NCBI GenBank assembly: GCA_000002435.2
Contig: CM018793.1
DNA: 64,000 nt
Source: Giardia intestinalis
Lineage: Eukaryota
Direction: 5' to 3' (one strand)
Translations under genes and position numbers: made by a program
In this document: one piece after another, positions 3,932-64,000 of the stretch
How positions within the stretch are numbered: position 1 is the first letter of the stretch
How the letters are laid out: each line of letters opens with the position of its first letter
Notes under the pieces: generated by a model
Told to the model about the DNA's origin: nothing
Seen by the model: the letters and a program-made list of their open reading frames with translations, nothing else
Database searches by the model: none

Positions 3932-3956
3932 ATGCGCGACTTGTAAACTTAGAAAG

Positions 3957-6221: not shown

Positions 6222-8777
6222 ATGGTTGCACCGACCTCTCAGGGCCAACAAGAGGCCGAGAGCTCCACTAGCGTGGTAGAAATAACAACCGGGACTACTG
6301 TTCATCATATTACCATCCCAGCCAGACCTAGGGCTGCCAAGTCGCCGCCTTTGAGATCGGCAGTTGAAAACTTGATGAAGGGGGGTATCTTTTCAACAGC
6401 CCAGCATACAGGCTCAGAAGAGGCAGCTACAAGGGGTCTATCTAGGGGATCGGGAGCTAAATCGTCCCTGGGAGACAATGGAAGATCTTGTACCAGGAAA
6501 AAGCGGTCCAGAAGCACGATCTTGAATATGAGGAAGGAGCTTGACGATATCCTAGCGCCACTAGGACCCCCTGAGGGCTCTTCTGTTGCAAGCCCGAGAT
6601 CAGGCCAAAATATACGATCGGTTTCTCCTCTGGTTGCAGTTAATAACATAGATGATACCGACACTGCAGCAATGGGTGGGAGGACTAAACTGATGATGGC
6701 TGCTATTGTAGATGACGTACTCGCTGTACAGAAATACATCACTGAACAAGGGCAGCGCACTCCAGACGGAAGGACAGCTCTCATGCTTGCAGCTGAACAT
6801 GGATCAATTGCGTGTATCGATCAGTTGATCCCCTGGGAGTCCGGTCTGGTTAGCAATAATGGGTGGACAGCAATAATGTATGCCATCGCGGCACAGAAGT
6901 TGCAGGCAGTGGAGCTCCTGGCTAGAAAGCCAAAGGAGCTGACCTCGACAACAGCAGACGGACGAACTCCGCTTATCCTGGCCGCTGAGATTGGCAGCGA
7001 GGAAGTTGTACAGCTATTTCTGGAGTCCAGACTCATTGGAATGACAACAGCTGACGGCAGAACAGCACTTATGCAAGCCGCGTGGAATAGGCATTTAGAT
7101 TGTGTTCGTTGGTTAGCAAAAAAGGAGGGTGGAATACAAGACTCAGAAGGGAAAACGGCTCTTATGCTGGCCATTGAGGGGAGATCTATCAATAGGCAAC
7201 AACACGATAAGGCCAGGACACAGGATTTCGTTAATCTGCTGGCTAGTGAAATGGGCAAAACCACAGCCGACGGAACTACGGCACTAATGTGTGCTGTGCT
7301 GAACAATGAAGAGGATAGTATCCCTCTGCTCAAGAGTGAGCTCATGAAGAGGCAAAGGAGTGGACGCACTGCATTGATTCTGGCCGCCAGACAAGGCACA
7401 CTTACAAGTCTTCATGATTTGCTGCCTGAAGCTGGAAGTAGGGACGGCTCTGGAAAACCAGCTTTATATTATGCACTGGAAGGGCGAAACATGACTCATG
7501 TGAGGGAGTTATCTGCAGAGTATAATATGACGATTGATGACGATGTGTCCATGCTCATGTCGGCAATAATTTTCGGCAATGAAGAGGCAGCCCTTCTCAT
7601 ACTGAAGGAGCTACAAAAGCAATCACTTACTACCCCAGCCAAAGGTCCTTTGCCCCCGTTGCATGTTCCAGTTACCGAAAGAGAGCAGAAGACAGCCCTG
7701 ATTCTTGCCGTCGAGGCAGGAAGTCTCGCACTGGTGAAGGAGTTATCCCTTACAGAGCATTCTTTTCAAGATGTTAAGGGGACCACGGCTCTGATGTACG
7801 CTGCAGAACGAGAGTTTTGTGATGCAATTAAGATTCTCTTGCCTTTGGAGGAGCACATGAAAAACGTTGCAGGCCACACAGCACTCATTCAGATGGCCAT
7901 GAATAACAACATCCTTGCCGTATCCTTCCTTCTCTCAGAGGCCTGTGACACTGACAATTCTGGAATGACAGCGCTTATGCACGCAGCACATTTGGGGCAC
8001 CATAATATAGTGAGCATTCTTCTCAGTAGCAACGAGGTCGGGATGGTCGACACCCATGGGATGACGGCCCTCATGCACGCTGCCATGAACGGCCATACAC
8101 AGTGCGTCTCTCTCTTGGCCCCGAAGGAGCACCATTACGCGCGGATGTACCGCTTATTGAAGGATAGCAATACTGGCATGACTGATGAGCAGGTGTGGTC
8201 CCACCAAAGTTTCTATTCCGGCCGGACGGCATTAATTATAGCGGCCATGTATAATTCGCTGGACTGTGTCAAGCAACTAATTCCTTGGGAAGCCTGGGTT
8301 CTCAATGAATACAATCGACTTCCCTCTACAGTGATAAATATAGGAACTTATTCTAACGACATTCAGGACGCTCTTACCATTCGAGGCATTCATAGATTAA
8401 TGAAAATGTATTATGCAAGACGGCGTAATGAGCTGGGGTCCTGCAACATCTGCCTCAACAAGATCTCTAGCATGAAGTGCTACCCGTGTAATCACACTGT
8501 TTGTTGCGAGGAGTGTGCTGAGAGGCTAATGACAACAAAAAAGCCATGTCCCCTTTGCAGACGGCCAATCCTGTTCTGGATCACAGAGTGTTATGATTTG
8601 GCCACTATGTCATTTACTCTAGCCCCAAATTTCGAATGGATCGACCTCCCAAGCGACGACGACGATGACGACAGTGATAGAAAACATTCCAAAGATGAGG
8701 ATACTGATGACGAGCTGTATGTCAATATACACTTGGACCACGAGATAGAAGTCTCATCGTATTCATGGTTTCACTAG
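6222..8777 (+). CDS. ankyrin-repeat protein (protein 21.1-like) with C-terminal C3HC4 RING finger and acidic tail
   Basis: Many repeats of the G(R/W)TALM.AA..G...(C)V..L ankyrin type. The RING is CNICLNKISSMKCYPCNHTVCCEECAERLMTTKKPCPLCRRPI at nt 8442..8570, followed by DDDDDDSD. Confidence 0.8.
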   Translation: MVAPTSQGQQEAESSTSVVEITTGTTVHHITIPARPRAAKSPPLRSAVENLMKGGIFSTAQHTGSEEAATRGLSRGSGAKSSLGDNGRSCTRKKRSRSTILNMRKELDDILAPLGPPEGSSVASPRSGQNIRSVSPLVAVNNIDDTDTAAMGGRTKLMMAAIVDDVLAVQKYITEQGQRTPDGRTALMLAAEHGSIACIDQLIPWESGLVSNNGWTAIMYAIAAQKLQAVELLARKPKELTSTTADGRTPLILAAEIGSEEVVQLFLESRLIGMTTADGRTALMQAAWNRHLDCVRWLAKKEGGIQDSEGKTALMLAIEGRSINRQQHDKARTQDFVNLLASEMGKTTADGTTALMCAVLNNEEDSIPLLKSELMKRQRSGRTALILAARQGTLTSLHDLLPEAGSRDGSGKPALYYALEGRNMTHVRELSAEYNMTIDDDVSMLMSAIIFGNEEAALLILKELQKQSLTTPAKGPLPPLHVPVTEREQKTALILAVEAGSLALVKELSLTEHSFQDVKGTTALMYAAEREFCDAIKILLPLEEHMKNVAGHTALIQMAMNNNILAVSFLLSEACDTDNSGMTALMHAAHLGHHNIVSILLSSNEVGMVDTHGMTALMHAAMNGHTQCVSLLAPKEHHYARMYRLLKDSNTGMTDEQVWSHQSFYSGRTALIIAAMYNSLDCVKQLIPWEAWVLNEYNRLPSTVINIGTYSNDIQDALTIRGIHRLMKMYYARRRNELGSCNICLNKISSMKCYPCNHTVCCEECAERLMTTKKPCPLCRRPILFWITECYDLATMSFTLAPNFEWIDLPSDDDDDDSDRKHSKDEDTDDELYVNIHLDHEIEVSSYSWFH

Positions 8778-9013
8778 ACTCTCTCAGCTCCAAGACATGG
8801 ATACAATGCTTAGAATATTTCAGCTAGAACCCCAAGATCGCTTCTTAAGTGTAGTAACAATTTCGGCCCTAAAAGTCTGAACCTGCTGAACATAGCTATC
8901 ATCTAATGGTAACAGCTCATTTTGAAATCTAGACACTTCTCCAAATACTCCAAACATTGAATATTTTACAACCAACGCAGAGAGTGTGTCATACCATGGC
9001 GGGTACAAAACCC

Positions 9014-12000
9014 TTACTTGCGAAGAAGAATGTTTGCCCAGAGCCTCCCAACGGACCGAAGGTCTTTGCTCAAGAACTCTATGTCTTTGAGCCACGAGTC
9101 CACCGGTACTTCTAGAACATTTCCAATAACTACTAGAGCCTGCTCGATTAGATCCAACGGGGGCGAGAATACATGTAGAGATTTGGCATATTCTGTTGGT
9201 GGAAGAAGATCCATATAGGGCGTAATGCGAATGAGGTACGACTCGTCTGTGTATAACGAGTACGTAAGAATTTGTTCCTCATGTCTCTTTTCTGCATAAT
9301 TGAGGAGGGACAAGTAGATAGCATTGGACTTATTCGACAGCTGATCAGATTGAGCCACAATTGCAGCATAGAGGAGGCACACCCGCATAGAAAAATCACA
9401 TACAGTGTCCTTCTTAATAGGATGCTCCATTTCAGACAGCAGATGGACATAGCTGCTCACAAGCGCCTTCTTACAGATGGCGCGCAAGAAGTTTATGTAG
9501 ACCGTACGGATTATCCTGCAAGTAGACTGTGGGATATTAATGAGAACACCGGATTCTCTCATCAGAATCCACCCAGAGGCAGCAGTGTAGTTCATTATCG
9601 GCGATCTGTCATTGTACACGCCTGCGAGCCACTGCTGGGACGAAATGACGCCATCCTCTGTGTATGCAACATGGTTGAAGTAGGAACAGGCTGCCCCTAA
9701 AAGCAGGCCTAGAATTTGTGCGTCTGACAACAGGCCGTGAGAGCCTTTTTGGAGCATGGCTAGAAAGATGAATACTTGCCTTAGAACCAGGATAGACCGT
9801 GAGCTGCAGTAGTAGGTGCTGGAAACCTCATTGGTCGTGAGCTTATAGCAAAGATCTGAGAGAGACTGGGGAGGTATCTTATAGTGCGACAACTCAAAGT
9901 ATTGAATACAGGAAAAAAGAAGCCTGAAGAGCTTTTTATGGTTTGACACGTTACTCCTAAACGTGTACAACGTATGTTCTAGCTTCTCGGGCCTCTCTGC
10001 CTCCAACTTTTCATCTGAGACACTTCCATTCAAAATGATATTAGCCCAATAAGAGGCCATAGCCTCGTTGGTCATCTTCTTGAAGTTCTTGCTTACCTTG
10101 GCTGGAAAAAGCGTTCCAGTTGTGTAATCCTGGTAATCTTCGCATCCTTGAGAAAAGAAGCTATGAGGGTACTGGCTATACACATCTTCATTGATTTTCA
10201 TTATAAAATGCTCTGTGTCGACTATTTTTGATCTAGAAATAATAATGGACTTTAAAAACGCCTTTTCACTGGCAGAAAGCTCCTCGATGGTCTTGTAATT
10301 CTTCTCCGGTATCTGAGGCGTTGGGCAGGCAAGATACTGTCCTCGTACCTTTACGCGCTGGCCTATCTTAGCTTGTCGGACCATGTCGTCTGCACTGAAG
10401 CTGTCACGAACGAGCGAGTAGGACAGATGCCCCCCATCGTCTGTTATAGAATCCCGCGCACAAAACGTACCGGACAAGAAGGCGTCGACGGCATTATCAA
10501 TACTCTGCTCTATATGAGTGACCGATGAACGAAGGTCTGACAAATAGTTGTTAATGTTCATCGTCTCCTTCCTGCTCCTGTCGTCATACTTGTTCAGCAA
10601 AGGATTTCTGAGAGATGCGTTGTTCCTCTTTCCTATTAGATGACCAAAGAAGTAGTGGATTGTCTCCAAATGAATATCCTGGTCTCGAACAAAGAGTTGG
10701 TGCTGTATCTGTCTCATGAACATTTCTTTCAGATACAGTCTGATCAGCTTTTTCTGCGAGTTCGTGATAGCATCTGTGTTCAGAAGATCGATGGACAGGG
10801 CCAGAAGCTGCTGATGGGTCTCTTGCACTAAAAACCTAGATTTATACTGTAGCGGTGGCTTTATATCACCAGAGGGGGTATAATTGATCTCGTGTGCTGG
10901 CAAATAGAGAGCTATAATGTTGGGTATGTGCATTATCGTGTATGGATTCGAAGTAACCGTGTCGACTATCTCCTTGGTCTCAACTGCGTCACGCTTCAAT
11001 GCAAACACATTTGTTATCAAGTCTTCTGCCATCTTGTCGCTCCGGCACGGCTTTGCAAGACAGAAAAAGGTGTTATAGACATATTCCATGAAGCCGATGC
11101 GCGAACGCTGGTACTTTTCCAAGAGGATATGTGATATGTAATGCGACACGCTTATCTCTGCGTCCCTTAGGCACCGGATGAATAGTTTTTTGTACCCCTG
11201 AAGATCTCCGTCAGAGTGGGGCAGAGACAGTAGGGAGATAACTGTTTCAGTCACCGAATTGTATATCTCTGTAGAGAAGATAGGCGTTTTTATAAACCAG
11301 GCGTAGTAGACACGAATCAGAATGTCTTTCATTTGAGTCGTATCTGTCGCCACTGCTACTTCATTTTGATATGCAGCTGCATCAGTAAGAAAGAATAACT
11401 GCTGATTGCCCGCTCCCGTCTGTGTGATGTATATATTAAAGAGGTGTCTTGAGCGCTTATTGAACAAGATCTCGCAAAACCTGGCCGCCATCTTGGGTCG
11501 CACAACGGGTTCAAATGTTATTGTGCAGGTCACCAAATTGGCTAGGGGAGCGAAAATCCATATCTTTTGATACACCTTAACCGGTAGAAATACATTGAGG
11601 AAGGTAAGGAAACGTGTCAGTAGCGTCACTGAAAGATATTTCACATTAAGGACAGTAATTACTTCCAGCAGATTTTCTGTCCACTTCGTAAAAGTTGATT
11701 CTTGGCACAGCATATATAAGCACTTCCGCGATGTCACAGTGGACTCCAGAACCTTGAGGAACCTGCTGCGCACGGTGCAATTGATGAAGATTGTCATGAT
11801 TATGTTGAACACAGCGACAACGGAAAGAGCATGTATAAGTACATTGCTGGTGTATCCGGAAGAGGTAGAGACGTAGTTTGGCTCGGAGTTAAACTCATAG
11901 ATGAGACCCAGCAAATAGATCACACAAAGTGGGGGAATGCAGAGCTTTGCGTAGAAGGTTGCATGTACGGGGGAAAAGGCAAATGAAGTAAACAGGAGGC

Positions 12001-12322
12001 AGAGAAAGATGGGCTGGAAAATGTCGATAAAAAGAAATATCGTTCTAATATAGTAGTAAAACATCTCGGAGATAAAGACCCCAGCATTCTGCAGTAAGTT
12101 TAGAAACATGTATGTAATAATTGGAAGGTAGCTCAGTGTCACGATCGCAAAGAGCAGGGCGCTAGAGTAGGGATAGTGCACGGAGTCTTCGGAGCGTCTT
12201 GTGCGAAAGCTTAAAATTTGTCTTATCACCCGCGCATACCCAGCGATGTAAAATGCTAATGAGATGAATATCCACTCCTCAACTACCAGGCGCGCTATGC
12301 CGTGCGGCTCCAGCTCTGCCAT
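9014..12322 (-). CDS. large polytopic membrane protein, unknown function (1102 aa)
   Basis: ATG at 12322 with attatttatt just upstream. The first ~300 aa contain many hydrophobic helices (e.g. FISLAFYIAGY, LLFAIVTLSYLPIITYMFL, IFLFIDIFQPIFLCLLFTSFAF). The remaining ~800 aa look soluble. No family recognised. Confidence 0.65.
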   Translation of the reverse strand: MAELEPHGIARLVVEEWIFISLAFYIAGYARVIRQILSFRTRRSEDSVHYPYSSALLFAIVTLSYLPIITYMFLNLLQNAGVFISEMFYYYIRTIFLFIDIFQPIFLCLLFTSFAFSPVHATFYAKLCIPPLCVIYLLGLIYEFNSEPNYVSTSSGYTSNVLIHALSVVAVFNIIMTIFINCTVRSRFLKVLESTVTSRKCLYMLCQESTFTKWTENLLEVITVLNVKYLSVTLLTRFLTFLNVFLPVKVYQKIWIFAPLANLVTCTITFEPVVRPKMAARFCEILFNKRSRHLFNIYITQTGAGNQQLFFLTDAAAYQNEVAVATDTTQMKDILIRVYYAWFIKTPIFSTEIYNSVTETVISLLSLPHSDGDLQGYKKLFIRCLRDAEISVSHYISHILLEKYQRSRIGFMEYVYNTFFCLAKPCRSDKMAEDLITNVFALKRDAVETKEIVDTVTSNPYTIMHIPNIIALYLPAHEINYTPSGDIKPPLQYKSRFLVQETHQQLLALSIDLLNTDAITNSQKKLIRLYLKEMFMRQIQHQLFVRDQDIHLETIHYFFGHLIGKRNNASLRNPLLNKYDDRSRKETMNINNYLSDLRSSVTHIEQSIDNAVDAFLSGTFCARDSITDDGGHLSYSLVRDSFSADDMVRQAKIGQRVKVRGQYLACPTPQIPEKNYKTIEELSASEKAFLKSIIISRSKIVDTEHFIMKINEDVYSQYPHSFFSQGCEDYQDYTTGTLFPAKVSKNFKKMTNEAMASYWANIILNGSVSDEKLEAERPEKLEHTLYTFRSNVSNHKKLFRLLFSCIQYFELSHYKIPPQSLSDLCYKLTTNEVSSTYYCSSRSILVLRQVFIFLAMLQKGSHGLLSDAQILGLLLGAACSYFNHVAYTEDGVISSQQWLAGVYNDRSPIMNYTAASGWILMRESGVLINIPQSTCRIIRTVYINFLRAICKKALVSSYVHLLSEMEHPIKKDTVCDFSMRVCLLYAAIVAQSDQLSNKSNAIYLSLLNYAEKRHEEQILTYSLYTDESYLIRITPYMDLLPPTEYAKSLHVFSPPLDLIEQALVVIGNVLEVPVDSWLKDIEFLSKDLRSVGRLWANILLRK

Positions 12323-12489
12323 GCGCCTGCCAATAAATAATCGGCCAAAAAAGAGGACACAATAGATTAAAAAGTAATGTAAGTCAGGAAAAATGCATAA
12401 AAATTATGAAATGCCATGAACGCTAAAACATCATAGGCACCTTTCCGAGGAGCTAGAAGCTAGAGGAATGCACGGCTTGCACAGCCGGG

Positions 12490-13827
12490 TTATACGATGT
12501 TGCGCTTAAACTCCAAGCCATTGCGCAGCACCGAAATGAGATTGTTCAGCTTTCCTCGGTCAAATCTATTGTACTTATGTATAACATACTCGCTCTCTTT
12601 CACGGTGAGTACTCGCCCAGACACACCGTCTATGGTTGTTATATCTCCATATGTGGCGTCTATCAATTCAACAAAGTGGAATGCATACTCGCAAAGAGCT
12701 CTAGGGCTCACTTTTGCGAAATTTTTGGGCAGTAACGCACACTCCTCCAACGGCGCTTGTACCATTAGCGTGAACTCCCCAGCCTTCAGTTTGGCCACAA
12801 CAGTTTCTCGCTTGATTCTCTCGGCGGTTCTGGTGTTTCTTAAAACATTGGTAATGTGAAAGCATGAAAACGGCAACAGCATGCAACCAACAGCACCATG
12901 CATCAAGCAAGAGAGTACATGAATGGGGACGGAATTGATGAGCCAAAGTGCCATAAACTTAACAGATATCTTCTTAGACCAGGCTAGGCTCAGCACAGGG
13001 AGACCAGGAAGCGTTAGGACTCGATAAATGGTTAGAGCATTAATGAGCGCAGTGTTAATGAGTGCCACGGATGTAAAAAAGAGAAACCCGTTGAACCACA
13101 GAAGATTGTTTCTGCCTATGCAGCTATTAGTCCAGATGCAGTGGTGATCAAAGTCCAGCACACACCTTGAGCAAACGCCGCAGTGATGAGAACGAGGCGG
13201 TCGAGGAACCATGCATGTAGAGCATACTTTTCTGGGGTACAAAAAGGTGTCATATGCACTGTCGGACTCCAGGTCCGAAGCCTCCTTTCGGGCGTCAACC
13301 TCCGGGTCTGTCACACCAACAGAATTGTTAGCACCAGTGCTAGATTTATCTGGTGCCACGGTTCCAGGATCCAGCAGGCATGCCAGCGCAAAGGAGGTTG
13401 CTGATAAAATATTAAAGGCAGGTACACTGACCATACGAACCTTACCAACTATACTAACCTTACTAGGGCTAGACGAGTAGGGGGATAAATTTAAAAGCGC
13501 TCGGGTCCATTGATACGCGCCTTCCTCTCCACTTCTTTCTGGGATGATTACTGTTAGAGGTCCTAGAATAGTTTTGAAAAAAGAATACATGGACATGATG
13601 AAGAGCAGCCAATAGAAACATACGACAAAGCAGTTGCGTCGCTGAAATAAGAGCTGGTCAAGGTTCAGAACACACACACCCTTCCTATTTCTCTCTAAAC
13701 ACAAAAGACATTGCCTCAACCTATAGAGGCGCGACGTACGCGGTGCTGCAGCTGCAATGTTGCCAATAAGCACCCCGAACGCAAGAGATAACGGCGCTGC
13801 TATGACTAGAAAGACCAATATGGCCAT
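12490..13827 (-). CDS. DHHC-type protein S-palmitoyltransferase
   Basis: The Cys-rich domain CSTCMVPRPPRSHHCGVCSRCVLDFDHHCIWTNSCIGRNN (nt ~13102..13224) contains the DHHC catalytic motif and is flanked by transmembrane helices. Confidence 0.85.
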   Translation of the reverse strand: MAILVFLVIAAPLSLAFGVLIGNIAAAAPRTSRLYRLRQCLLCLERNRKGVCVLNLDQLLFQRRNCFVVCFYWLLFIMSMYSFFKTILGPLTVIIPERSGEEGAYQWTRALLNLSPYSSSPSKVSIVGKVRMVSVPAFNILSATSFALACLLDPGTVAPDKSSTGANNSVGVTDPEVDARKEASDLESDSAYDTFLYPRKVCSTCMVPRPPRSHHCGVCSRCVLDFDHHCIWTNSCIGRNNLLWFNGFLFFTSVALINTALINALTIYRVLTLPGLPVLSLAWSKKISVKFMALWLINSVPIHVLSCLMHGAVGCMLLPFSCFHITNVLRNTRTAERIKRETVVAKLKAGEFTLMVQAPLEECALLPKNFAKVSPRALCEYAFHFVELIDATYGDITTIDGVSGRVLTVKESEYVIHKYNRFDRGKLNNLISVLRNGLEFKRNIV

Positions 13828-25411: not shown

Positions 25412-26042
25412 GACCTATCCTGTCTTATTCACTGTCTACACCTCAAGATAGCCACTTATCATTCTAGCAGCTAGAGTTCTCAACTCTCCAGTGTTATGTC
25501 CTTGTTGGATCGCCCATAACTATCTGGTGCGTTGTACCGTAGTTTTCGATGCACGTATGCAATGCAGTATCCGATTGTATCTCTATTCGGCAAACGTGAG
25601 ATGTACTTGGATTTACCCTTGAGGCAGAGTATTCATCTTATTAGACGCAACAGTGCTGCCGACCAAGCCACTGCTAGGCAGAGCACACGGCCTGTATCTG
25701 CTCATCTCGTGCTCTAGCCAGCCACCCTGCGTGAGCATCTGGAGACATGCCTGGACATATGTGTGGTATTCTGCGGTGTGTACGGTCCCGTGTCCACGCA
25801 GTAGGCCAGCCAGAGAGCGTGTGCAGGCACGCCATGTGGCACCACGTCCTTTGTGGAGCGCTGGAGGAATACACAGGTGAGGGTCTACCATCAAGATGCG
25901 GACACGTTGCTTCCTGACATGGAAGGTCAATGAGGCTATCCAGATGGCCCAGCTATGGTAGAAGGCTAGCAGATGTGATCGTATTGGCCATCAGCACTGT
26001 CACTAACACCAACATGCATGACTAATGGACCTAGCAGGGCCG

Positions 26043-26052
26043 CAATGTTGCT
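26043..26052 (+). promoter_or_regulatory. VSP initiator-type motif caATGttgct spanning the start codon
   Basis: The same 10-mer, caatgttgct, spans the ATG of the second VSP at 59356..59365. It matches the PyAatgTT initiator described for vsp genes. Confidence 0.55.
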
Positions 26053-27610
26053 ACTAGTTCTCTGCTTTTTGATGAGCGCCCTCGCCGCGCAACGCACTAA
26101 ACAACCCACATCCGACTGCGGAGTCGCAAACTGCGCCCAGTGCAACGCGGACGGCAGGACGTGTGATCAGTGCAGCGAGGGGTACAACCTCAACCAGGAG
26201 AAGACCCAGTGCACCAAGGCGTGCGCGGTCGCAAACTGCGCCCAGTGCAACGCGGACGGCAGGACGTGTGATCAGTGCAGCGAGGGGTACAACCTCAACC
26301 AGGAGAAGACCCAGTGCACCAAGGCGTGCGCGGTCGCAAACTGCGCCCAGTGCAACGCGGACGGCAGGACGTGTGATCAGTGCAGCGAGGGGTACAACCT
26401 CAACCAGGAGAAGACCCAGTGCACCAAGGCGTGCGCGGTCGCAAACTGCGCCCAGTGCAACGCGGACGGCAGGACGTGTGATCAGTGCAGCGAGGGGTAC
26501 AACCTCAACCAGGAGAAGACCCAGTGCACCAAGGCGTGCGCGGTCGCAAACTGCGCCCAGTGCAACGCGGACGGCAGGACGTGTGATCAGTGCAGCGAGG
26601 GGTACAACCTCAACCAGGAGAAGACCCAGTGCACCAAGAACCCAGAAGCGCGATGCAATACTCCCAACTGTAAGACCTGTGACAGCCCCAAAACAGACAG
26701 TGAAATCTGCACTGAATGTAATAATGGCAACTACCTCACCCCGACAAAGCAGTGCACGCAGAGCTGCGGAACAATAGGAAGCTACTACAACGGAGACAAA
26801 GTGTGCGAGCCCTGTGATCCTAGCTGTGCTGCGTGCATCACAAAGGGACCAGCGAAGTGCACGCTGTGTCCTCCCGGGAAGAGGCTCCAGTACACAGATG
26901 AAGGAGCCACTCAGAACGGCGGATCCTGCGTAGATGAGTGCAAGCCTGAAGGAGGAGCTAGCGGATGCGAGACCTGCGGAGCCACCATCGGAGGGACAAA
27001 GTATTGCTCGAAGTGCAGCACATCCACGGAGGTCCCCGTCAACGGGGTCTGTACAGCAGACAATGCCCGCGCAGCTGCGTGCAAGGTGAAAGATGGCAAG
27101 GGAGGGTGCACTACGTGTGAGAGTGGATACTTCCTCCAAGACGGCGGTTGCTACAAACTCGGTAGACAGCCCGGTGAGCAGATATGCACAGCAGCCAGTA
27201 GCGCTGGTAAGTGCGAGACGTGCGCCAATAGTCTTCAGCCCAATAATGGAGCATGCCCCTCGTGTCACTCGACCTGTAAGACATGTCGTGATGCTAATTC
27301 TGCAAATGCTTGTACAACGTGTGCAGCTGGGTACTATATGGTCGGATCAGCAGCTGGACCATGCACTTCGTGTGACAGCAACAGTGGAAGTGTCAAGGGA
27401 GTTGCTGGCTGCATGAGCTGCGCTCCTCCATCGTCTAGTACTGGCTCCGTCCTTTGCTACCTCATGAACGGTGACAGTGCCGGCGGAAGCACGAACAAGA
27501 GCGGCCTTAGCACAGGCGCCATCGCAGGCATTTCTGTCGCAGTCATCGTTGTCGTGGGGGGTCTTGTCGGCTTCCTCTGCTGGTGGTTCCTCTGCAGGGG
27601 CAAGGCGTAG
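26045..27610 (+). CDS. vsp: variant-specific surface protein (VSP) with five 35-aa tandem repeats
   Basis: Signal peptide MLLLVLCFLMSALAA, many CXXC motifs, a GGCY motif (QDGGCYKLG), and the conserved C-terminus GLSTGAIAGISVAVIVVVGGLVGFLCWWFLCRGKA. In-frame upstream ATGs at 26018/26014 are possible, but the initiator motif favours 26045. Confidence 0.95.
   Translation: MLLLVLCFLMSALAAQRTKQPTSDCGVANCAQCNADGRTCDQCSEGYNLNQEKTQCTKACAVANCAQCNADGRTCDQCSEGYNLNQEKTQCTKACAVANCAQCNADGRTCDQCSEGYNLNQEKTQCTKACAVANCAQCNADGRTCDQCSEGYNLNQEKTQCTKACAVANCAQCNADGRTCDQCSEGYNLNQEKTQCTKNPEARCNTPNCKTCDSPKTDSEICTECNNGNYLTPTKQCTQSCGTIGSYYNGDKVCEPCDPSCAACITKGPAKCTLCPPGKRLQYTDEGATQNGGSCVDECKPEGGASGCETCGATIGGTKYCSKCSTSTEVPVNGVCTADNARAAACKVKDGKGGCTTCESGYFLQDGGCYKLGRQPGEQICTAASSAGKCETCANSLQPNNGACPSCHSTCKTCRDANSANACTTCAAGYYMVGSAAGPCTSCDSNSGSVKGVAGCMSCAPPSSSTGSVLCYLMNGDSAGGSTNKSGLSTGAIAGISVAVIVVVGGLVGFLCWWFLCRGKA
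26123..26638 (+). repeat. perfect tandem repeat, 105-bp unit x 4.9, in frame inside the VSP
   Basis: Unit gtcgcaaactgcgcccagtgcaacgcggacggcaggacgtgtgatcagtgcagcgaggggtacaacctcaaccaggagaagacccagtgcaccaaggcgtgcgcg starts at 26123, 26228, 26333, 26438 and 26543. I saw no mismatch between copies. It encodes (A)CAVANCAQCNADGRTCDQCSEGYNLNQEKTQCTK. Confidence 0.95.
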
Positions 27611-54588: not shown

Positions 54589-57500
54589 TACTTTTAATTT
54601 TACAGTACAGTTTACTCTCCGTTTCACTGGGTAAATCTCCCATGCGAGCCAGCGCCGCCCTGGGCAGGTCTCTTGCTTACTCACTAACCGAAATCCAAAT
54701 CCAGACTTCGCAAGTCAAACGTCGTCCACTTCAGCGGGAGAAGAAGCCCAAATGGGGAAGTCGGTGGTCCAACGCCTAGCCCTCTGCGTCCCCAGTAGAC
54801 AACAAACCCGCGGCTGCTCCCACGAGTGAGCCGCTGAGGAAGGCCTGCGGGGACTCGAAGAAAAGAGTCTAGAGAGCATCCAATAGAATGAGCAGGAGGG
54901 CCAGGAGACAGGAACAAGAGAGCTCTAGCATCTTCCTCTAGCGAACCTCCCTGTCATGGAGAAGGGTGTATGGTGGCTGAGTGTGGGGGTTGTAAACCTA
55001 GAGCAATCGCCGGGTCGATGGCTTCAGCATGGCTTTCAGCAAGATGTAGCAGGGAATCCGAACCAGCTGAGCATTGGACCAGGTCCTGGATAGGAGCTAA
55101 GGGCTCCTGTGCACGGCTGGGCTGCTCTCTAGATGGGACAGGGCACGGTGAGCTGGACGGGTGTGATACTATAAGGTATCTATAGTTGTATCGATACAAC
55201 TAGTAGGCCCACACTGGACTCTGAGAAGTACACTGCTAGACAGGCTGGAGAAGCCTGAGGGGCGATAGCACCATCTTGTTATCGCTATGCAGTGCTCTGT
55301 GGGCATGCATTCAAGACATCATCCCCTGGTAGCCGGGGAGGGGACAGAGTCAGGCGGTAGTGAGCATGCCCATCAGAATGCCTCTAGGTACTGACCAGCC
55401 ACTCCCTAGAAGCGCAGATGTCTCGGCTAGGTTGCATCACATCCAGAGCAAAAGAGGAAGCTGTACTGTCCTATTTGTTTCTCAGAACAATGTGCGAATA
55501 GAAGGCGGCCCAGCGACTGATACTCTGCACCGTCCTCTTCATCCACAGCCTGAGCAGCCAGATGCCAGGCTCAATATGAAGACGGAGGCTGCGAAGAGTA
55601 AACTCACCACGGGGCCGATTGTCTGACACCAAAAAATCCGAAAGGACGACAGTAGCTGCTGTCTCCTTGAAGAGTGCATCACACACAGTATCGACCTTGG
55701 TCTCCTAGACGAACACTCTAGAACATTCTACACTAGCCCTGACTTCTGAGGCATTAAACCCTATAACTAGCACAGAGTGAGGCAACAGCATGCAGACGGT
55801 GCGTTATCTTCATAGATGTGTACTACAGCTTCCGACTGCATATGGATGTACCGAGATGGGCAGTTTGACCGGCTTACATTGGCGACTTGTCCGTCACCGT
55901 GTTTGCTGCGATGAGAAGCTGCGTCTGCCCGGCAGACTGAGCATAGATTACAGCAGCTTCTCTGCTGATGCATGTATGGCCATGCGCCGCCCTAGTAGGT
56001 GGCGTAAATACCATAATGCCTAACCTGTCTGTTGTTAGCGGAAAATAGCAGTTAGTCGTGTTAGAGATGCCTCTAAGTAAGCCTCTAGTCTTTGTGCCTA
56101 CTCCTCTACCAATTATAGTGACGACCGTATATTCAGAAAGACTACGGAACTCTCCACCGTCTCTCAAGGAGACTAACGGCTCATGCATGGGCTAGCGACG
56201 GAGGCCCATGAACTACCTACTACGAGCCTAGCTTACTGAGCAGTCTGGATCACAGTGCACTTGATAAGCATCTATGCACTCATTTGGATGCTCACTACTA
56301 ATACTGACAAGACTACAAGGAGGTTTGCTTTTGGTCACACTCCCCTCATAATGCTTAGCCCTTGGCACCACATTTCAACGAAGGAAGATGTTAGGTAGGT
56401 ACGCAAAAGGCTATTTGTGCACGGTGGTTCCTGGAGAGCAAGTTTGCACAAAGACTGTAAAGGCGACTAGCAGATCAGTGAGGTAAGCCTGACGTTATAG
56501 AGACAAGCTGTAGATCCGGATTGCAATGGGGACGCCTGTGGTGTCTCTCTGGCCTTCGAGTGTAGAAAAATCGCGAGGTCTGCAGACAGGTGAAGCTAGT
56601 TTTTGATTTATGCGCTTATAGCAGTGTAATATTTATTGGGACCTGTTTCGTCTGAGGCCGAAGACGTTTATCTTTTCTCCGTATACAAGCAAGGATCTAC
56701 TGTAGAGATATACTGTGCAGGCCAGTACCAATCGACGTGGTTGCTATTAGCAGGTGTCTCACTTGCACCTTCTCATAACGGGTAGCCATCAGCAGCGTCC
56801 TCGGCCCACGTGACATTCTAGATGCATCTCTGCCTTTGACCAAAGATTGACACACGCGTTGTGTAGTTTAGATTGCTCATCAGCCAGAGTGGCGTGGCTA
56901 CCCCTTATCCTCTACTTGTCTATCTCGTACAACCATTGCTGATGGCCTTTCCAGATTAGCATGCAAATGCTCTTATCGGTCCCACAAAGGCATACGTCAT
57001 ACAAATAATCACTACAGTCTAGGGTCCTGTCTACCAAAGAAAAGGCCAACCAGTTTACCACGTAGGCATTCATTGTGCATCTCATATAGTCTGGCAAGTC
57101 TTGTGCTCCCCAACATTCCCTCGCAAGCCCTCAGCTAAAGCCCGTATGCATATCGTTATTGACAAGCGCCTTAGCTTCATCTGGCCACTTAGGGCGTTAG
57201 ACCCTTTGCCTTGTACAATGAGTATACTCGGCGTGGGAGGTATACAATCAGCATCGGCCTTTTCTGCTCGTTGTCCGTATGATACTGTTGTTGCTTCTTG
57301 ATTCAACCAGCAACCTAGTTAATGGCTCAAGAGTAGGTGATAGCCCGCCAACGGGCAGTCAATAGTGGCCATAACGCATACCTTCACCAAGGCACAGCCT
57401 CCCTGAGCAGAGCACAAAAGTGGACCCTGCCATTCTGCGGCCCTACTATTCTCTTGAATAACAGGATCAGAGCAGCTCATGGTTAGTATTAGCTGTCTTC

Positions 57501-59357
57501 GGGTCTCCACCTGTCCTTATTGTCTGAGGTATGCTTGACTCCGTAGATTCGAAAGATGCTGTACTGTACTCGTACCTGCAAGCCTCAGCCAAGCAAGGCT
57601 ACCATCTTGAAGGCTTGGCAGTGATGAGCCACACAGTCGGCGGGATCTGCAGAGAGCATTCATCCCAATGAGCCTTTTACTTGTCGTATACAGGTTGTGG
57701 CTGTGACCTCATAGGCGCAGGACTTTCTGGAATAACCGGTCAACTACAGAGTCTGTCCACTCATGTAAAGCCACCTGATAGAGGGCGATATCAATCTCGT
57801 CACTCGTCTACAACATACACCAGTCGAATCTCACAGATGAACAAGGGCCACCCAGCCCGCAGCACTAGACATTAACAGATATCCTTCACGACAAAGGGGG
57901 TGAGCGACTAGTAGACCACAGCAGTCGCCTGCCCATTGAAGATCTTCCAGTCACTGACCTAGGTCAGCTTCCTACAAGATCTTGAGAGCTTTATTAGAGG
58001 TGCATGCTTATAGAATCCCCAACTCAAGGTGCATGCTGTCGGACCCTGCTATTTTTCACATCAGCTCGTAGACATCGGTTCTTTTGATCTCTAGTGGGGT
58101 CACGGGGGATCGCAAGATATGGTTCCCTCAGTAAGGCTTTATCTGACTCCTGTAGCTATATGACAGGAGGATACCGGTCTTCTATGGATTATTTAACGCA
58201 TGCTAAGGTGCACCAGTACAAGTCCTACAGTGTGGCATGATTCGTGAGTCAAAAGGTAGGATGCTTGGGCTGATTGGCGTGTCTCCTCGGGACCAAATAC
58301 AGCTAGGACCAAAGGTCATGAACGAATGCTATTCGATTCCCTTATCAGCAGATGGGGGTCAACTGCTCTAGTATCCACAAGAGGCTATAGAGGGTACTGG
58401 ACCAGGCATCCGGCCAATTGCTGGCAAATCAACACAACCTCCTTGGATCTCCATTCTTTCCTCACAGGCATCTACATGTAGGAAGCTCTGAGGACCTAGA
58501 GCCCTACACTAACAGGCTCAAGGTATTGCACTCCTAGGTGCTTCCATTAGTGGTGGTAGTGATAGCACCAGGATGATCCAGAAGGGGGATAGAAATCCTG
58601 CCCCGTTAGCTCAAGAAATGGCACAGTTTGAGCAGGGTTTCCTCCTTGTTTAAATTTGGGAGTACTAGCCTACGCCCTCTGACCATCTGACGCCTTATCA
58701 TGCGATGGGGAATCTTAATAGTATCCACTACAAAAAGCCAGAAATAGCACCATGCACACCCAACAAACCAGAGCGTCTCATAGGCTAATCTACACTGATT
58801 CGCACTTCCACGGACCCTAGCGACCACTGTAACCGTCTCTCGGGATCTTGCAAGGGACTGTCCTTGAGCGCGATTCCTCCATGACAACCAGAAGTCGCAG
58901 ACATAGTCCAAAGGGATGAGAATACTATAGAGGCGGAGAAGAGATCATCTGCGCACGGGGGTCCGCAGGGGCCCGACCCGCACAGGGAAGGCGTAAGAGG
59001 CCAATTCCCCAGGAATGCAGAGACATTAAGAGAGGAACCAGCAGTGGGCCCATAACACAGGGAGGTCACCCGGGCCGCCCCCTGATTGGCCACAGGGTAG
59101 AGGAGCAGCATGCGCGCGGGACAGCATTGCTACTTATTTTTGAATTTTCTGTTTCCCTGCATGTTGTGCAGGGGTCCGCGGTGGGTGCTAGACTATAGTT
59201 AGTAGATGCTTTCGGCATTAACAACTATCTCTTGTACAACAATATTATCAAAAAGGGATTTCTTTAAGCTGGCAGCATAGCAATAACCGAATGGAGCTTT
59301 TTAGCTTTGGGTATCTTTGCTAGTAGGATTCTTGATAGTGGATTAAGAAGAATCTCA
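54589..59357. other. ORF-poor tract (4.8 kb) between the NEK gene and the VSP
   Basis: All six frames are interrupted. The longest ORF in the track here is 108 aa, none has a recognisable motif, and I saw no internal tandem repeat. The rest of the window is mostly coding. Confidence 0.7.
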
Positions 59358-59365
59358 ATGTTGCT
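59356..59365 (+). promoter_or_regulatory. VSP initiator-type motif caATGttgct spanning the start codon
   Basis: The 10-mer is identical to the one at 26043..26052. Confidence 0.55.
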
Positions 59366-60617
59366 GATAGCTTTCTATCTTGGGCTGAGCGCCCTTGCGG
59401 CACAATGTAAGCAAGTACAAAATTGTGCAGCAGGTAAGTGTGAGATGGTTGGCGGCACTGAAATTTGTACAGAATGCGCGACAAATGGAAACGTTCCTAT
59501 CAATGGGGAGTGTACACCAAAAGGTAATGCGGCTGATAAATGCAAGAAAGTTAACGGTAATGAGCTTGTTGACGATAAGACATGTGGAAAATGTGAGAAC
59601 ACATACTTCATGTACAAGGGTGGATGCTATCAACTTGGCAGTGATGTCGCACTCCTCATCTGCAACGATCAAGCTGCTTCACCTGGAGGGCGTAATGCTG
59701 TTGCTGGCGTTTGCACAGAATGTAATGCTACTGGGGGATTCTTCAAAAGCCCAGAGGCGGCCGACACGACAGATTCCTGCATATCGTGCAGTGATACAAC
59801 TGGAGTGCAGGTTAATGGCGGTAACACGTATAAAGGTATCGAGAATTGTGTAGTATGTGCAGCTCCAGAAAGAGGAACAGGTAACGAAAATAAGATTGCT
59901 GCATGTGAGTCATGTCTTGAAGGATTCTTCGTTGCATCTAACAAGGCAGTATGCACACGTTGTACTGATAATGATAATTGCGCTAAGTGTGATGCAGGCG
60001 AAAACAAGTGCACAAAATGTAAGGCAACAGCCAGCAAACCATATCTAAAAAAGGGCGAAACCGAGGACTCTAATACATGTGTTAATAGTAACGAATGTAC
60101 TACTGATAAAACTTACTTCACTGATGATACTGACGACCCTACTCATGGAAAGATGTGCAAGAAATGCTCAGAAGGGATAGCAGACTGTAAGAAATGCGCT
60201 CCATCATCACCTTCTGCTTTAGCTACAGTATCCGCAATTGTGTGCACAGAATGTACAACACAGACCAACAAACCCAATGTTGCCGGAACAGGGTGCTTCA
60301 CATGCTCCGTAGACGGATGTAGTAACTGTAGCGAGAATGACGTATGTGAAAAGTGTGGACCTAACAAGAAGGTGAGCCCCGGGAGGAAGTCATGCGTGGA
60401 TAGCTGTCCCGAGAACTCCATTGACGATAACTCTGTCTGTACATGCAGCAGTGGGTACAGCCCTGACAGCAGTGGGGCCTCCTGTGTGTCCACTGGCAGT
60501 AATAGGAGCGGGCTCTCCACGGGGGCCATAGCGGGGATCTCCGTCGCAGTCATCGTCGTCGTCGGGGGTCTCATAGGGTTCCTCTGCTGGTGGTTCGTGT
60601 GTAGGGGGAAGGCGTGA
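59358..60617 (+). CDS. vsp: variant-specific surface protein (VSP), left copy of the inverted pair
   Basis: The first ATG is at 59358 (the track start 59307 is TTG). Signal peptide MLLIAFYLGLSALAA, many CXXC motifs, a GGCY motif (YKGGCYQLG), and the C-terminus GLSTGAIAGISVAVIVVVGGLIGFLCWWFVCRGKA. Confidence 0.95.
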   Translation: MLLIAFYLGLSALAAQCKQVQNCAAGKCEMVGGTEICTECATNGNVPINGECTPKGNAADKCKKVNGNELVDDKTCGKCENTYFMYKGGCYQLGSDVALLICNDQAASPGGRNAVAGVCTECNATGGFFKSPEAADTTDSCISCSDTTGVQVNGGNTYKGIENCVVCAAPERGTGNENKIAACESCLEGFFVASNKAVCTRCTDNDNCAKCDAGENKCTKCKATASKPYLKKGETEDSNTCVNSNECTTDKTYFTDDTDDPTHGKMCKKCSEGIADCKKCAPSSPSALATVSAIVCTECTTQTNKPNVAGTGCFTCSVDGCSNCSENDVCEKCGPNKKVSPGRKSCVDSCPENSIDDNSVCTCSSGYSPDSSGASCVSTGSNRSGLSTGAIAGISVAVIVVVGGLIGFLCWWFVCRGKA

Positions 60618-60631
60618 CTTAGGTAGTAAAC
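60617..60631 (+). terminator. VSP 3' motif plus poly(A) signal ACTTAGGTAGTAAAC
   Basis: It overlaps the last base of the TGA stop and is identical to 27617..27631. Confidence 0.8.
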
Positions 60632-61074
60632 ACGTCACTGTATATGGCTTATTACGCTATTCTGCCGGGGCTATCTGAGGATCGCCCAGAGGTCGTGCGA
60701 GTGATCCTCGCTCAAGCTCTGACCAGTCTAAGGACGAGGGTTGGTCATGAATAACATGACGGAGAGCCCTCTCCAGTGACACATCCAGAATCTGGGCATT
60801 CCTCGCCGCTCCATGAGGATATGCTCTGTCTGGATGTCCATGCCGATCTATCTTGGATTCAGGCCTTCTCGCAGGCTCTCTACTCTACCCGTGGCGCCTC
60901 TCCATGGTCTTCCTTCGTGGTGGGTGAAGCTCCGGTCGCTGTTTTTTAGATGCTCCTGTCTGTCAGGGGCTGCCACCGGGCTCTCCGCTGGCTGGGCCCT
61001 CGGTGTCCGTCCGGCTGTGGCCCGGGCAGCGCTCTACGGTCGCGGTCACTTGGGTCTCAGTGGGTTCGGATGGT

Positions 61075-61135
61075 GGGGAGGCGAGGGGAGTTAGGGCGGT
61101 GAGGCCGGAGGGGCTGGAGGGGCTGGAGGGGCTGA
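61075..61135 (+). repeat. G-run tract with a 9-bp GGGGCTGGA tandem at the inner end of the left arm
   Basis: Six runs of at least 3 G lie in ggggaggcgaggggagttagggcggtgaggccggaggggctggaggggctggaggggctga. It is mirrored as a C-run tract at 62737..62797. Confidence 0.8.
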
Positions 61136-61147
61136 GGTTGGTGGTGG

Positions 61148-62724
61148 TTGTATGCGCCTCTGGTCCCTCGATAGACTGGGGTGATCGCAGCTGTGGTGAC
61201 TGGGGGCTGTCCATCTGTGACTCACCCCTCTGTGTGCTCGTGGTCTGTGAGTGCCTCCACCCAGACAACCCTCAGGAGCCGTGCACACCAGGACAGAGAG
61301 GGTGACAGAGGAGAGTCAAGCAGCCCTGCCACGAGGGTGCACAGCAGCCAGCCTGGGCTGCAGGGCCCGCTCGAGCGATGGTAGTGACAGACGACTCCCT
61401 CTGACAGCAGCCCTGGTGACTGGCACTGGTCTGCTTTCGAGGCTGAGTGACAGTGTGCACAGATGGACATGAGTGCAGGAGGACCATCCACACACGGACA
61501 GACTGTGCCCCCATACGAGAGCGCCAGGCAACCACCCGAGCACCCGAGAGGCAGCAACAGACACGGGCACTAGAGATCCCCAGCCAGACAGCTGCCATGC
61601 TCATCCATAGGGGCATCAGAGGACCAGGGGAGTCACCCTCACAATCAGGGTATGATAGGAAGCCAGAGGACTCAAACACTACAGCATAGCAGATCCAAGG
61701 GAGGCACACTCCAGCAGGCGAGCAGTGGCAGAGCCCTGATAGCTGCCAGCCCCCCATGACACCCAGGCAGGCACCAGGCTCACCGAAGGCTCTGCTGGCC
61801 TCCACCGATGATCCGAGGGGGCAGCAACCAGAGGAGTGGGGAGGCCTTCGGACACCACAAGAGGCCCGGCTGTCCAGCAGGCGATGGAGCACAGGTGGCC
61901 TCTGAGCACCATACAGGCACAGAGCCGACCATCAGAGTGATGCCCGATCAGAGACGACCACGAGCACCCTCCACCGCACTCTGAGGGGCTGTCGATCATC
62001 CCACTGCCTCTCATAGCAGACCTCCTTGAGAGCAGTGCAGTGGGTCCCAGCTCATGCACGCCTCCCCTGGCATAGGACACCCCGGCTCTCCCCGAGGGGT
62101 CATCAGAGCCACGAGAGGTGTCAAGGTCCTGGTAGATCACACCGGGAACTCCCCGAGGGCACAGCAACTGAGATATGAGTGACCCTCAGTGTGCTCCTCT
62201 CTGATGGTAGAGCATCTTGAGACCAAGGGGGTCACCTCTGCCTACGGACGACACACAGCACTCCACAACAAGGACCCACTAGGAGCAGCACAGCTGACCA
62301 CGGGGACAGTGCAGTCACCAGTGCCCCACCGTGCCAGTTTTCTGGGCCATCATACTATAGGCATGAGAGAACCCCATCCCATCCACAGGGTCATCCATGC
62401 CCCTGCTGGCCCGAGGTGAACTCCCCGTCGAGGCGCTGGACAGGGCATGCCAGGGGCTCAGCAGACCCACAGAGAGAATCAGCGAGTAGCAGGAGGGGCT
62501 GCGATGGCCTGCCTCAGCCCTCACGTACCAGCCAGACAGAGAGACAGTACTGCCTGAGGCATGCAGGGGCCAAGGGAGGCGATCAGTCAGGGGACACGAC
62601 ACGATCGTCGGTGCCTGTGTCTCGGGAGTGCAACGAAGGCTGGAGATCAGACACAGCCACCTTAGCAAACAGAGTGGGGACAACCCACCACCCCAATAGC
62701 CCACCGAACCCAGAGGCACATACA
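61148..62724. other. spacer of the inverted VSP pair (1,577 bp, GC-rich, strand-skewed)
   Basis: It lies between the two identical arms. The first ~110 nt on each side are still recognisably but imperfectly homologous. I could support no credible gene. Confidence 0.75.
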
Positions 62725-63240
62725 ACACCACCAACCTCAGCCCCTCCAGCCCCTCCAGCCCCTCCGGCCTCACCGCCCTAACTCCCCTCGCCTCCCCACC
62801 ATCCGAACCCACTGAGACCCAAGTGACCGCGACCGTAGAGCGCTGCCCGGGCCACAGCCGGACGGACACCGAGGGCCCAGCCAGCGGAGAGCCCGGTGGC
62901 AGCCCCTGACAGACAGGAGCATCTAAAAAACAGCGACCGGAGCTTCACCCACCACGAAGGAAGACCATGGAGAGGCGCCACGGGTAGAGTAGAGAGCCTG
63001 CGAGAAGGCCTGAATCCAAGATAGATCGGCATGGACATCCAGACAGAGCATATCCTCATGGAGCGGCGAGGAATGCCCAGATTCTGGATGTGTCACTGGA
63101 GAGGGCTCTCCGTCATGTTATTCATGACCAACCCTCGTCCTTAGACTGGTCAGAGCTTGAGCGAGGATCACTCGCACGACCTCTGGGCGATCCTCAGATA
63201 GCCCCGGCAGAATAGCGTAATAAGCCATATACAGTGACGT

Positions 63241-63255
63241 GTTTACTACCTAAGT
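63241..63255 (-). terminator. VSP 3' motif plus poly(A) signal ACTTAGGTAGTAAAC
   Basis: The reverse complement of gtttactacctaagt is acttaggtagtaaac, mirroring 60617..60631. Confidence 0.8.
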
Positions 63256-64000
63256 CACGCCTTCCCCCTACACACGAACCACCAGCAGAGGAACCCTATG
63301 AGACCCCCGACGACGACGATGACTGCGACGGAGATCCCCGCTATGGCCCCCGTGGAGAGCCCGCTCCTATTACTGCCAGTGGACACACAGGAGGCCCCAC
63401 TGCTGTCAGGGCTGTACCCACTGCTGCATGTACAGACAGAGTTATCGTCAATGGAGTTCTCGGGACAGCTATCCACGCATGACTTCCTCCCGGGGCTCAC
63501 CTTCTTGTTAGGTCCACACTTTTCACATACGTCATTCTCGCTACAGTTACTACATCCGTCTACGGAGCATGTGAAGCACCCTGTTCCGGCAACATTGGGT
63601 TTGTTGGTCTGTGTTGTACATTCTGTGCACACAATTGCGGATACTGTAGCTAAAGCAGAAGGTGATGATGGAGCGCATTTCTTACAGTCTGCTATCCCTT
63701 CTGAGCATTTCTTGCACATCTTTCCATGAGTAGGGTCGTCAGTATCATCAGTGAAGTAAGTTTTATCAGTAGTACATTCGTTACTATTAACACATGTATT
63801 AGAGTCCTCGGTTTCGCCCTTTTTTAGATATGGTTTGCTGGCTGTTGCCTTACATTTTGTGCACTTGTTTTCGCCTGCATCACACTTAGCGCAATTATCA
63901 TTATCAGTACAACGTGTGCATACTGCCTTGTTAGATGCAACGAAGAATCCTTCAAGACATGACTCACATGCAGCAATCTTATTTTCGTTACCTGTTCCTC
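63255..64000 (-). CDS. vsp: variant-specific surface protein (VSP), right copy of the inverted pair, 5' part outside the window
   Basis: The minus-strand frame is open to the window edge. The visible ~248 codons are identical to codons of the left copy (…GTGNENKIAACESC…CWWFVCRGKA). The track lists only the part from the internal Met (63255..63719). Confidence 0.9.
   Translation of the reverse strand, partial: GTGNENKIAACESCLEGFFVASNKAVCTRCTDNDNCAKCDAGENKCTKCKATASKPYLKKGETEDSNTCVNSNECTTDKTYFTDDTDDPTHGKMCKKCSEGIADCKKCAPSSPSALATVSAIVCTECTTQTNKPNVAGTGCFTCSVDGCSNCSENDVCEKCGPNKKVSPGRKSCVDSCPENSIDDNSVCTCSSGYSPDSSGASCVSTGSNRSGLSTGAIAGISVAVIVVVGGLIGFLCWWFVCRGKA

Follow-up and report, generated by a model that had tools for sequence, protein, structure and literature searches.

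Why do the two arms of an inverted pair of VSP genes, identical from the coding sequences into the downstream flanks, cease to be identical at one particular point, and why does the DNA between them resemble one copy rather than both? These questions are raised by a convergent VSP gene pair on chromosome 5 of Giardia intestinalis WB (assemblage AI), located in the final 5 kb of the 64-kb stretch of DNA that was analysed as a whole and is called the window here. The left VSP gene (59358-60617, + strand) is a GL50803_14331-type ORF of 419 aa with a CRGKA tail directly before the stop codon, and an AGTAAAC poly(A) signal follows the stop. The encoded protein is 100% identical to P0122 (KAE8305600.1/KAE8305601.1/XP_001705960.1), and the same 419-aa protein is deposited under two adjacent WB accessions, KAE8305600.1 and KAE8305601.1. 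The right copy (63255-64000, - strand) is clipped by the window end, so that only its 3' part is present; it is a perfect mirror of 59872-60617, with 100% identity across all 746 nt inside the window. The two ORFs are separated by 2637 nt (60618-63254) that gave no Pfam or Rfam match. With convergent identical ORFs, the CRGKA tail, PF03302 (present in homologs of the window VSP), a non-coding gap in the range of 2-4 kb and abrupt divergence of the flanks, the pair is one of the identical tail-to-tail vsp pairs of Giardia.

Such pairs have been described before. Adam et al. (2010; PMC2996952) report 14 identical inverted vsp pairs, the flanks of which are identical until a ‘point of abrupt divergence’ that lies 139-729 nt from the coding region, with 2-4 kb of non-coding DNA between the ORFs. 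For vsp107, Table 5 of that study places the 3' divergence at 529 nt and the ORFs 2638 nt apart; these numbers are those of the locus studied here, which is vsp107. A more recent study (bioRxiv 2022.03.07.483299) lists GL50803_00d14331/GL50803_0014331 in its S4 table as a convergent pair on chromosome 5, 2,637 nt apart and with no annotation in between, and counts it among eight pairs whose intergenic regions are called ‘very similar’. In Giardia WB, the palindrome is one of a family of tail-to-tail VSP modules that measure 2.5-2.8 kb. The pair itself, the 529-nt divergence point and the likeness among intergenic modules are already published, and the locus represents no new system or kind of element. 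In the parts of these two publications that were consulted, neither the G-run tract nor the A/T-skew flip was found to be mentioned, nor were the left/right asymmetry or any homogenisation or shift of the boundary across isolates; these are the subjects of the present analysis.

The perfect inverted repeat covers 59872-61146 and 62726-64000, that is 1275 nt at 100% identity with 1579 nt between the arms, and its outer end is clipped by the window end. Its inner parts are the 3' flanks of the two genes: 60618-61146 on the + strand, extending 529 nt after the stop, and the mirrored 62726-63254 on the - strand; read in the sense direction, the flank has more T than A and more G than C. The original prediction had placed the end of identity at 61147/62725. 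That boundary is real but off by one, since 61146/62726 is the last identical pair of positions and 61147 carries the first difference between left and right in WB, a 1-nt indel in a (GGT)n run. Together with one substitution, this indel is all that separates the near-identical arm tail at 61147-61163 (+ strand) from its partner 62709-62725, and identity in WB extends to 546 nt after the stop if two differences are allowed. It had further been proposed that the next ~110 nt can still be aligned. This held for these 17 nt (61147-61163 against 62725-62709), but the remainder did not outscore control blocks drawn from the spacer. When the halves of the spacer were aligned with each other, nothing was found beyond the 17 nt, the best local score of 19 being within the shuffle range, and an anchored alignment of the halves reached a score of 36 that was equalled by the control blocks.

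Six G-runs had been predicted just before the end of identity, and this was confirmed. A tract of five GGGG runs and one GGG run occupies 61075-61131 (+ strand), with the last run 15 nt from the WB boundary, and it is mirrored at 62741-62797 (- strand), where it is seen as C-runs on the + strand. TRF identified a 9-nt unit repeated 3.6 times at 61103-61134, mirrored at 62738-62769, and a further GGG at 61062 lies outside the six-run tract. At a density of at least six G-runs (or C-runs) per 80 nt, the 64-kb window contains only the tract at 61075-61131, its mirror and a C-run cluster at 62684-62709 that adjoins the right boundary; the tract at 61075-61131 is the densest G-run cluster of all. 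No canonical G4 motif (at least four runs of at least G3, loops of 1-7 nt) was found in the arm tract, which would need a 13-nt loop. The sole canonical G4 motif of the window (loops of at most 7 nt) is instead right-specific, at 62684-62711 on the - strand, where it overlaps a 10-nt insertion that is specific to the right side. ViennaRNA folding changed from -4 to -17 kcal/mol when G4 was allowed, as calculated with a hybrid-parameter energy model, and this gain is at most suggestive of a quadruplex. Indels are also more frequent in the G tract than anywhere else in the flank, in WB, in both flanks of isolate DH (DH_L and DH_R) and in three paralogous VSP loci (L004, L027 and L028). The tract is hypervariable and slippage-prone, and in this way probably speeds the decay of the edge.

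Whether the boundary is a fixed property of the locus was judged from isolate DH (assemblage AII), in which the orthologous locus was found on contig AHGT01000063.1 (L003), and from two metagenome contigs of the same type (L001 and L002); in all, one orthologous lineage and parts of three paralogs were compared. L003 and the window are colinear over positions 54969-63291, a stretch that includes the spacer and reaches the right arm. The DH arms are 100% identical to each other, and their identity ends 447 nt past the stop codon. When the four flanks are aligned, WB_L is the same as WB_R and DH_L the same as DH_R. The two isolates differ from each other at 128 columns, and these differences are common to both arms; as far as the DH boundary, 0 differences separate the arms of either isolate. 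Past the boundary the grouping is by side, with WB_L going with DH_L (z = 37) and WB_R with DH_R (z = 42), whereas left against right reaches only z = 2.4-5.4. WB and DH have orthologous spacers and orthologous inner junctions on either side, and therefore the palindrome predates the AI/AII split. Since arms of an orthologous palindrome are identical within isolates and differ between them, arm-to-arm gene conversion must have acted separately in each lineage. The gene conversion that had been offered as one option was thereby borne out. As judged from these alignments, conversion removes differences between the arms until a lineage-specific limit, which is 529 nt after the stop in WB and lies ~80-100 nt nearer to the gene in DH, and inside this limit the two sides have been diverging since before the AI/AII split.

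Homogenisation does not seem to be restricted to the two arms. Identity between WB and DH is a mosaic, with 98.6% in the 5' CDS, 65-78% in the block 60400-60900, 92% further in and 89-91% in the spacer, and the flanks of L004, L027 and the other VSP in the window are mosaics of one another. Both mosaics therefore point to further ectopic exchange among VSP 3' ends, in line with a report that gene conversion is enriched at VSP genes in assemblage AI (PMC12669663).

The DH comparison also bears on how rigid the association with the G tract is. In WB coordinates, identity in DH ends at ~61029, followed by 21 more identical nt, and hence before the G tract, at a point ~80-100 nt nearer to the gene than the WB boundary. 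For nine tail-to-tail pairs, Adam et al. (2010) give 3' boundaries of 318 (572), 354, 486, 514, 515, 529, 530, 541 and 559 nt, where 572 is a bracketed second value for the 318-nt pair; the other WB pairs were judged from these published numbers alone. All of these boundaries lie less than 587 nt after the stop, the point at which the ancestral homology of the arms would end. Identity had been expected to end at the G-run or G4 tract as a rule. This expectation was not supported, as DH identity ends before the tract, the published sister boundaries spread over 318-572 nt, and the arm tract has no canonical G4. Because of the DH boundary and the spread of the sister boundaries, the G tract is not a fixed stop. 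The WB and DH boundaries nevertheless bracket it closely, so that some causal role for the tract is possible.

The flank beyond the identity boundary was traced with paralogs. Protein searches with ORFs from the flank and the boundary gave three matches only, which yielded L004, L027 and L028; a scan of JGI metagenomes with the VSP poly(A)-signal pattern returned 21 chance matches and 0 from Giardia. With DH and the paralogs as bridges, the left side could be recognised as homologous to the flank family until 61204, and the claim that the sequence beyond the boundary is alignable was upheld to that extent. The segment 61164-61204 (+ strand) is a decayed remnant of the left arm that is 85% identical to L028 and only 56% to its right-side counterpart, a diverged stretch located by alignment with DH and the paralogs at 62661-62709 (- strand). 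The right-side inner flank (62605-62708, - strand) continues into the spacer, and its part 62605-62661 corresponds to the consensus of the VSP 3'-flank family, with 100% identity to L028 and 83-90% to L004. L028, which is another DH VSP locus, has such a flank followed by a hybrid boundary. Over 61164-61204 it is of the left type (85% to WB_L versus 62% to WB_R), past the counterpart of 61204 it is of the right type (96-100% to WB_R versus about 40% to WB_L), and it then continues through at least 860 nt that resemble the spacer, at 84% identity to window 62709-61850, until the contig ends in the middle of the spacer. L004, a single VSP, shares the right-type flank until window position 62605, ~650 nt after its stop (z = 12-14). 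Beyond 62605 no sequence shared with L004 was detected and its T>A skew stops as well, and an extension of the flank family into the spacer was rejected for this locus.

Composition changes abruptly on the left side. The A/T counts that had been given for four 60-nt segments were all exact, and the sharp skew transition announced near 61260 was recovered as a minimum of the cumulative (A-T) curve at 61256. The AT-skew jump at ~61261 (delta 0.99; A11/T37 versus A30/T9; Fisher p = 5e-7) is the largest change between adjacent windows in the 64 kb. The T-rich, left-specific segment that precedes it (61205-61256, + strand) keeps the T>A skew of the left arm and ends at the flip, which makes it a candidate for the junction of an old inverted duplication; the DH orthologue was its only detected homolog. 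The unique spacer that follows (61257-62604) has a GC content of 62%, an A>T skew of +0.30 on the + strand and no recognisable gene. It is ~90% identical to DH, with many indels (gap columns) in the alignment of WB and DH, and its part 61850-62604 is ~84% identical to the DNA downstream of the paralogous VSP in L028. Neither a Pfam search with nine spacer ORFs nor an Rfam search of the spacer gave a match, and the spacer has no similarity to the reverse transcriptase of a neighbouring element. A tblastn match of its - strand to the VSP transmembrane region was faint and non-colinear (E about 0.02). A coding or RNA function of the spacer was rejected on these grounds.

Taken together, the locus is probably the inner edge of an old palindrome whose arms are kept identical by arm-to-arm conversion with a limit that varies between lineages, in which the G tract is no fixed barrier and which arose as a fold-back inverted duplication with a loop native to the right copy. 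The palindrome would consist of a VSP gene whose 3' flank measures about 590 nt, then a ~1.4-kb loop of unique sequence, and finally the inverted copy. Conversion tracts could presumably not be extended or resolved where homology is poor, which would leave the edge just outside the decayed zone and allow it to creep. The G-run microsatellite probably mutates fast by slippage and would then often provide the first heterology without being a fixed barrier. The order in the ancestral flank would have been left type, right type and then spacer, and the left arm would be an inverted copy of this flank that ends at 61204 or, at the latest, at 61256. Such a copy could have been made by fold-back or template switching, and the skew flip at 61256 may mark the resulting junction, which is located to 61204-61256. 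The loop would be native DNA downstream of the right copy, and for that reason composition would change sharply on the left side only. The evidence from composition and L028 favours, we infer, an inverted duplication with a loop from the right copy. That the spacer belongs with the right copy had been proposed from composition, and it gains support from the way in which the L028 flank runs into spacer-like DNA in the right-side orientation; the support is incomplete, as L028 is possibly half of a pair and the single-copy L004 has no spacer. L028 may itself be half of a tail-to-tail module, and would then be uninformative on which copy was the parent. Among the loci compared, none was found that preserves the arrangement before the duplication.

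Other explanations of the boundary have to be weighed against this reading. The G-run tract, by forming a G-quadruplex or a slipped structure on the sense strand downstream of the VSP, might be a causal barrier to heteroduplex extension or repair synthesis. The density of its G-runs and its distance of 15 nt from the WB boundary agree with this, as do the DH boundary 20-40 nt on the other side of the tract, the end of the L027 contig inside the tract, the sole canonical G4 motif of the window abutting the right boundary, and the folding gain, which rests on a hybrid energy model. However, conversion in WB has crossed the tract in full, four G3 runs come together in the arm tract only across a 13-nt loop, so that it has no canonical motif, and the published sister boundaries, at 318-559 nt (plus 572), share no single site. 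The tract moreover lies near the end of arm homology in any case, so that its association with the boundary is confounded. A causal barrier therefore seems unlikely, if still worth considering. A stronger version, in which the G-rich tract with its quadruplex potential is a selected boundary element of the conserved 2.5-2.8-kb module that delimits conversion, could stop read-through hairpin RNA and is tied to RNAi-based VSP silencing, is very improbable; were it true, a stop to read-through would prevent a long hairpin RNA of the two VSP copies. Finally, the identical arms could be an assembly artefact or the product of two recent independent duplications. Identical vsp pairs did come under suspicion as assembly artefacts in the past, according to bioRxiv 2022.03.07.483299; that study confirms 20 identical pairs in the newer WB assembly and, with Xu et al. 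as its source, puts the number of VSPs in duplicated pairs at 38. The independent DH assembly has the same architecture with orthologous spacer and junctions, and independent duplications could not yield orthologous left-type and right-type junctions. Both variants were rejected on the orthology of the left and right junctions in DH, and we consider it almost certain that they are wrong. The spacer of L001 is reversed relative to L003 and WB, as would be seen in a flip-flop inversion isomer of the repeat; however, identical arms longer than 1.7 kb are beyond what a short-read assembly can phase.

For the centre of the palindrome, the original prediction had offered as one of two options an older and longer palindrome that was truncated on one side. 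Left-side homology does continue for 58 nt past perfect identity, to 61204, which supports a slightly greater former length, but a truncation is not needed, because the asymmetry follows without any deletion from an inverted duplication whose loop is one-sided. In this alternative, a symmetric and longer palindrome lost its left centre through a centre-break deletion or an insertion, and the spacer is what remains of the right arm. The homology beyond perfect identity is compatible with such a loss, the - strand of the spacer has the T>A polarity and the GC content of the flank, and the orthologue in P15 has a very different centre, so that such centres are labile. Against it, 61257-62604 contains no trace of left/right similarity anywhere, and in the single-copy L004 the flank loses both its homology and its T>A skew at ~650 nt past the stop codon, which means that the family flank does not reach 2 kb. 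A loss of the left centre is thus quite unlikely. The skew of the spacer could alternatively stem from a degenerate gene or a retroelement relic on the + strand and not from the native flank of the right copy. An A>T skew of 0.30 on the + strand exceeds that of all genes in the window, bioRxiv 2022.03.07.483299 reports that tail-to-tail pairs can have pseudogenes or ‘VSP like regions’ between them, and the faint tblastn match on the - strand (E about 0.02) would fit. However, the spacer lacks similarity to Pfam, Rfam and the neighbouring reverse transcriptase, its ORFs are apparently no longer than its composition predicts, and it has accumulated many indels between WB and DH. A relic is therefore a decidedly unlikely source of the skew. 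The preferred reading remains a conversion edge in an old inverted duplication with a loop from the right copy.

The gain over the published record is modest. The locus is the same as in Adam et al. (2010) and bioRxiv 2022.03.07.483299 (vsp107 or GL50803_14331/d14331), and its intergenic module is like that of other pairs. What the present analysis contributes is a demonstration across isolates of concerted evolution in the arms of a VSP pair, with a homogenised zone that has a movable inner limit beside a hypervariable G-rich microsatellite. It also offers a concrete hypothesis for the origin of VSP modules, by inverted duplication with a one-sided loop. This helps to account for the occurrence of identical VSP genes only as inverted pairs, and it accounts for the breaks of short-read assemblies at such loci. 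The pair could furthermore serve as a natural system in which the limits of conversion tracts are measured in an asexual polyploid parasite.

Several known systems share parts of this picture. Palindromes of the Y chromosome in humans and other primates reportedly undergo arm-to-arm gene conversion. As in those, inverted arms that carry genes surround a unique spacer in Giardia, and arm similarity is greater within a genome than between lineages, even though the palindrome arose before these split. The Y palindromes differ in scale (9 kb-1.45 Mb), whereas the Giardia arms measure about 2 kb or more, belong to an asexual tetraploid protist and carry antigen genes as cargo. The boundaries of plastid inverted repeats are said to ‘ebb and flow’ by gene conversion, and the Giardia pair is similar in that the edge of a homogenised repeat shifts by tens to about 100 nt between close lineages. 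Plastid boundaries, however, are those of an organelle and usually lie in genes, while the Giardia boundary lies in a G-rich microsatellite zone of a non-coding flank. Fold-back inverted duplications, whether hairpin-primed or generated by template switching, have an asymmetric single-copy loop. The Giardia spacer is likewise continuous with one arm only and has a sharp novel junction on the opposite side; unlike in those cases, its origin is deduced from composition and one paralog. Recombination for antigenic variation at pilE of Neisseria reportedly depends on a G4, which resembles the Giardia locus in that a G-rich and potentially quadruplex-forming tract lies beside an antigen gene under gene conversion. 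In Neisseria, however, the G4 initiates conversion and is strictly required, whereas the Giardia tract is found where the converted DNA ends, away from the gene, differs between lineages and is non-canonical.

Identity between WB and the orthologous locus of isolate DH (assemblage AII) changes in blocks around the VSP. It is 98.6–99% across window 59100–60400, but it falls to 65–78% in 60400–60900, which comprises the final ~215 nt of the coding sequence and the initial ~300 nt of the 3' flank, and to 74% directly upstream of the VSP cassette (58900–59100). This alternation suggests that an ectopic replacement, which then would have spread to both arms, lies behind the low-identity blocks. At 59071 the window has its second-largest jump in AT skew.

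The 64-kb window contains a single canonical G4 motif (loops ≤ 7 nt), at 62684–62711 on the minus strand, where it overlaps a right-specific 10-nt insertion adjoining the right boundary, the end of perfect arm identity at 62726. A second, unpaired VSP gene is present at 26018–27610, with 105-nt tandem repeats at 26012–26746, and homology of its 3' flank to the flank of the pair is limited to ~130–240 nt. At a paralogous VSP locus of DH (L028), an ORF in the 3' flank and spacer DNA (P0126, 10001–10489) is annotated as 'Serine/threonine protein kinase, partial'. Since P0126 has zero Pfam matches on record and is located in VSP flank and spacer DNA, this name looks like a misannotation.

In a metagenome contig of the same locus type (L001), alignment of 9464–11168 with 14034–11823 of the DH locus (L003) showed the left outer flank and arm joined to a right-type boundary, and the spacer runs in the opposite direction to that of DH and WB. 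This reversal points to one of two things, a flip-flop inversion isomer or a path ambiguity of short-read assembly. An element of ~3 kb that carries an RVT_1 reverse-transcriptase ORF was found in DH (L003 ~2620–5713), in metagenome contigs (L001 325–3105) and in the assemblage E isolate P15 (L026 3347–7702); WB is without it at 54937/54969. The DH copy is flanked on both sides by inverted repeats of 53–59 nt.

The 4.6 kb upstream of the left VSP (54690–59300) contains no ORFs of at least 110 aa and shares homology with the inverted arms at the P15 locus; it may belong to the WB arms where they continue past the window. The nearest P15 homologue of the pair's VSP is 62% identical and has homologous flanking DNA, and it is a single gene (L026 10001–11164) between inverted arms of 2057 nt that are 98% identical (7704–9760 and 11175–13231). 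These arms consist of the VSP-upstream region, corresponding approximately to window 57484–59091. The P15 palindrome thus encloses one VSP and has neither the 3' flank unit nor the spacer, which shows that palindromes of this family have an evolutionarily labile centre.
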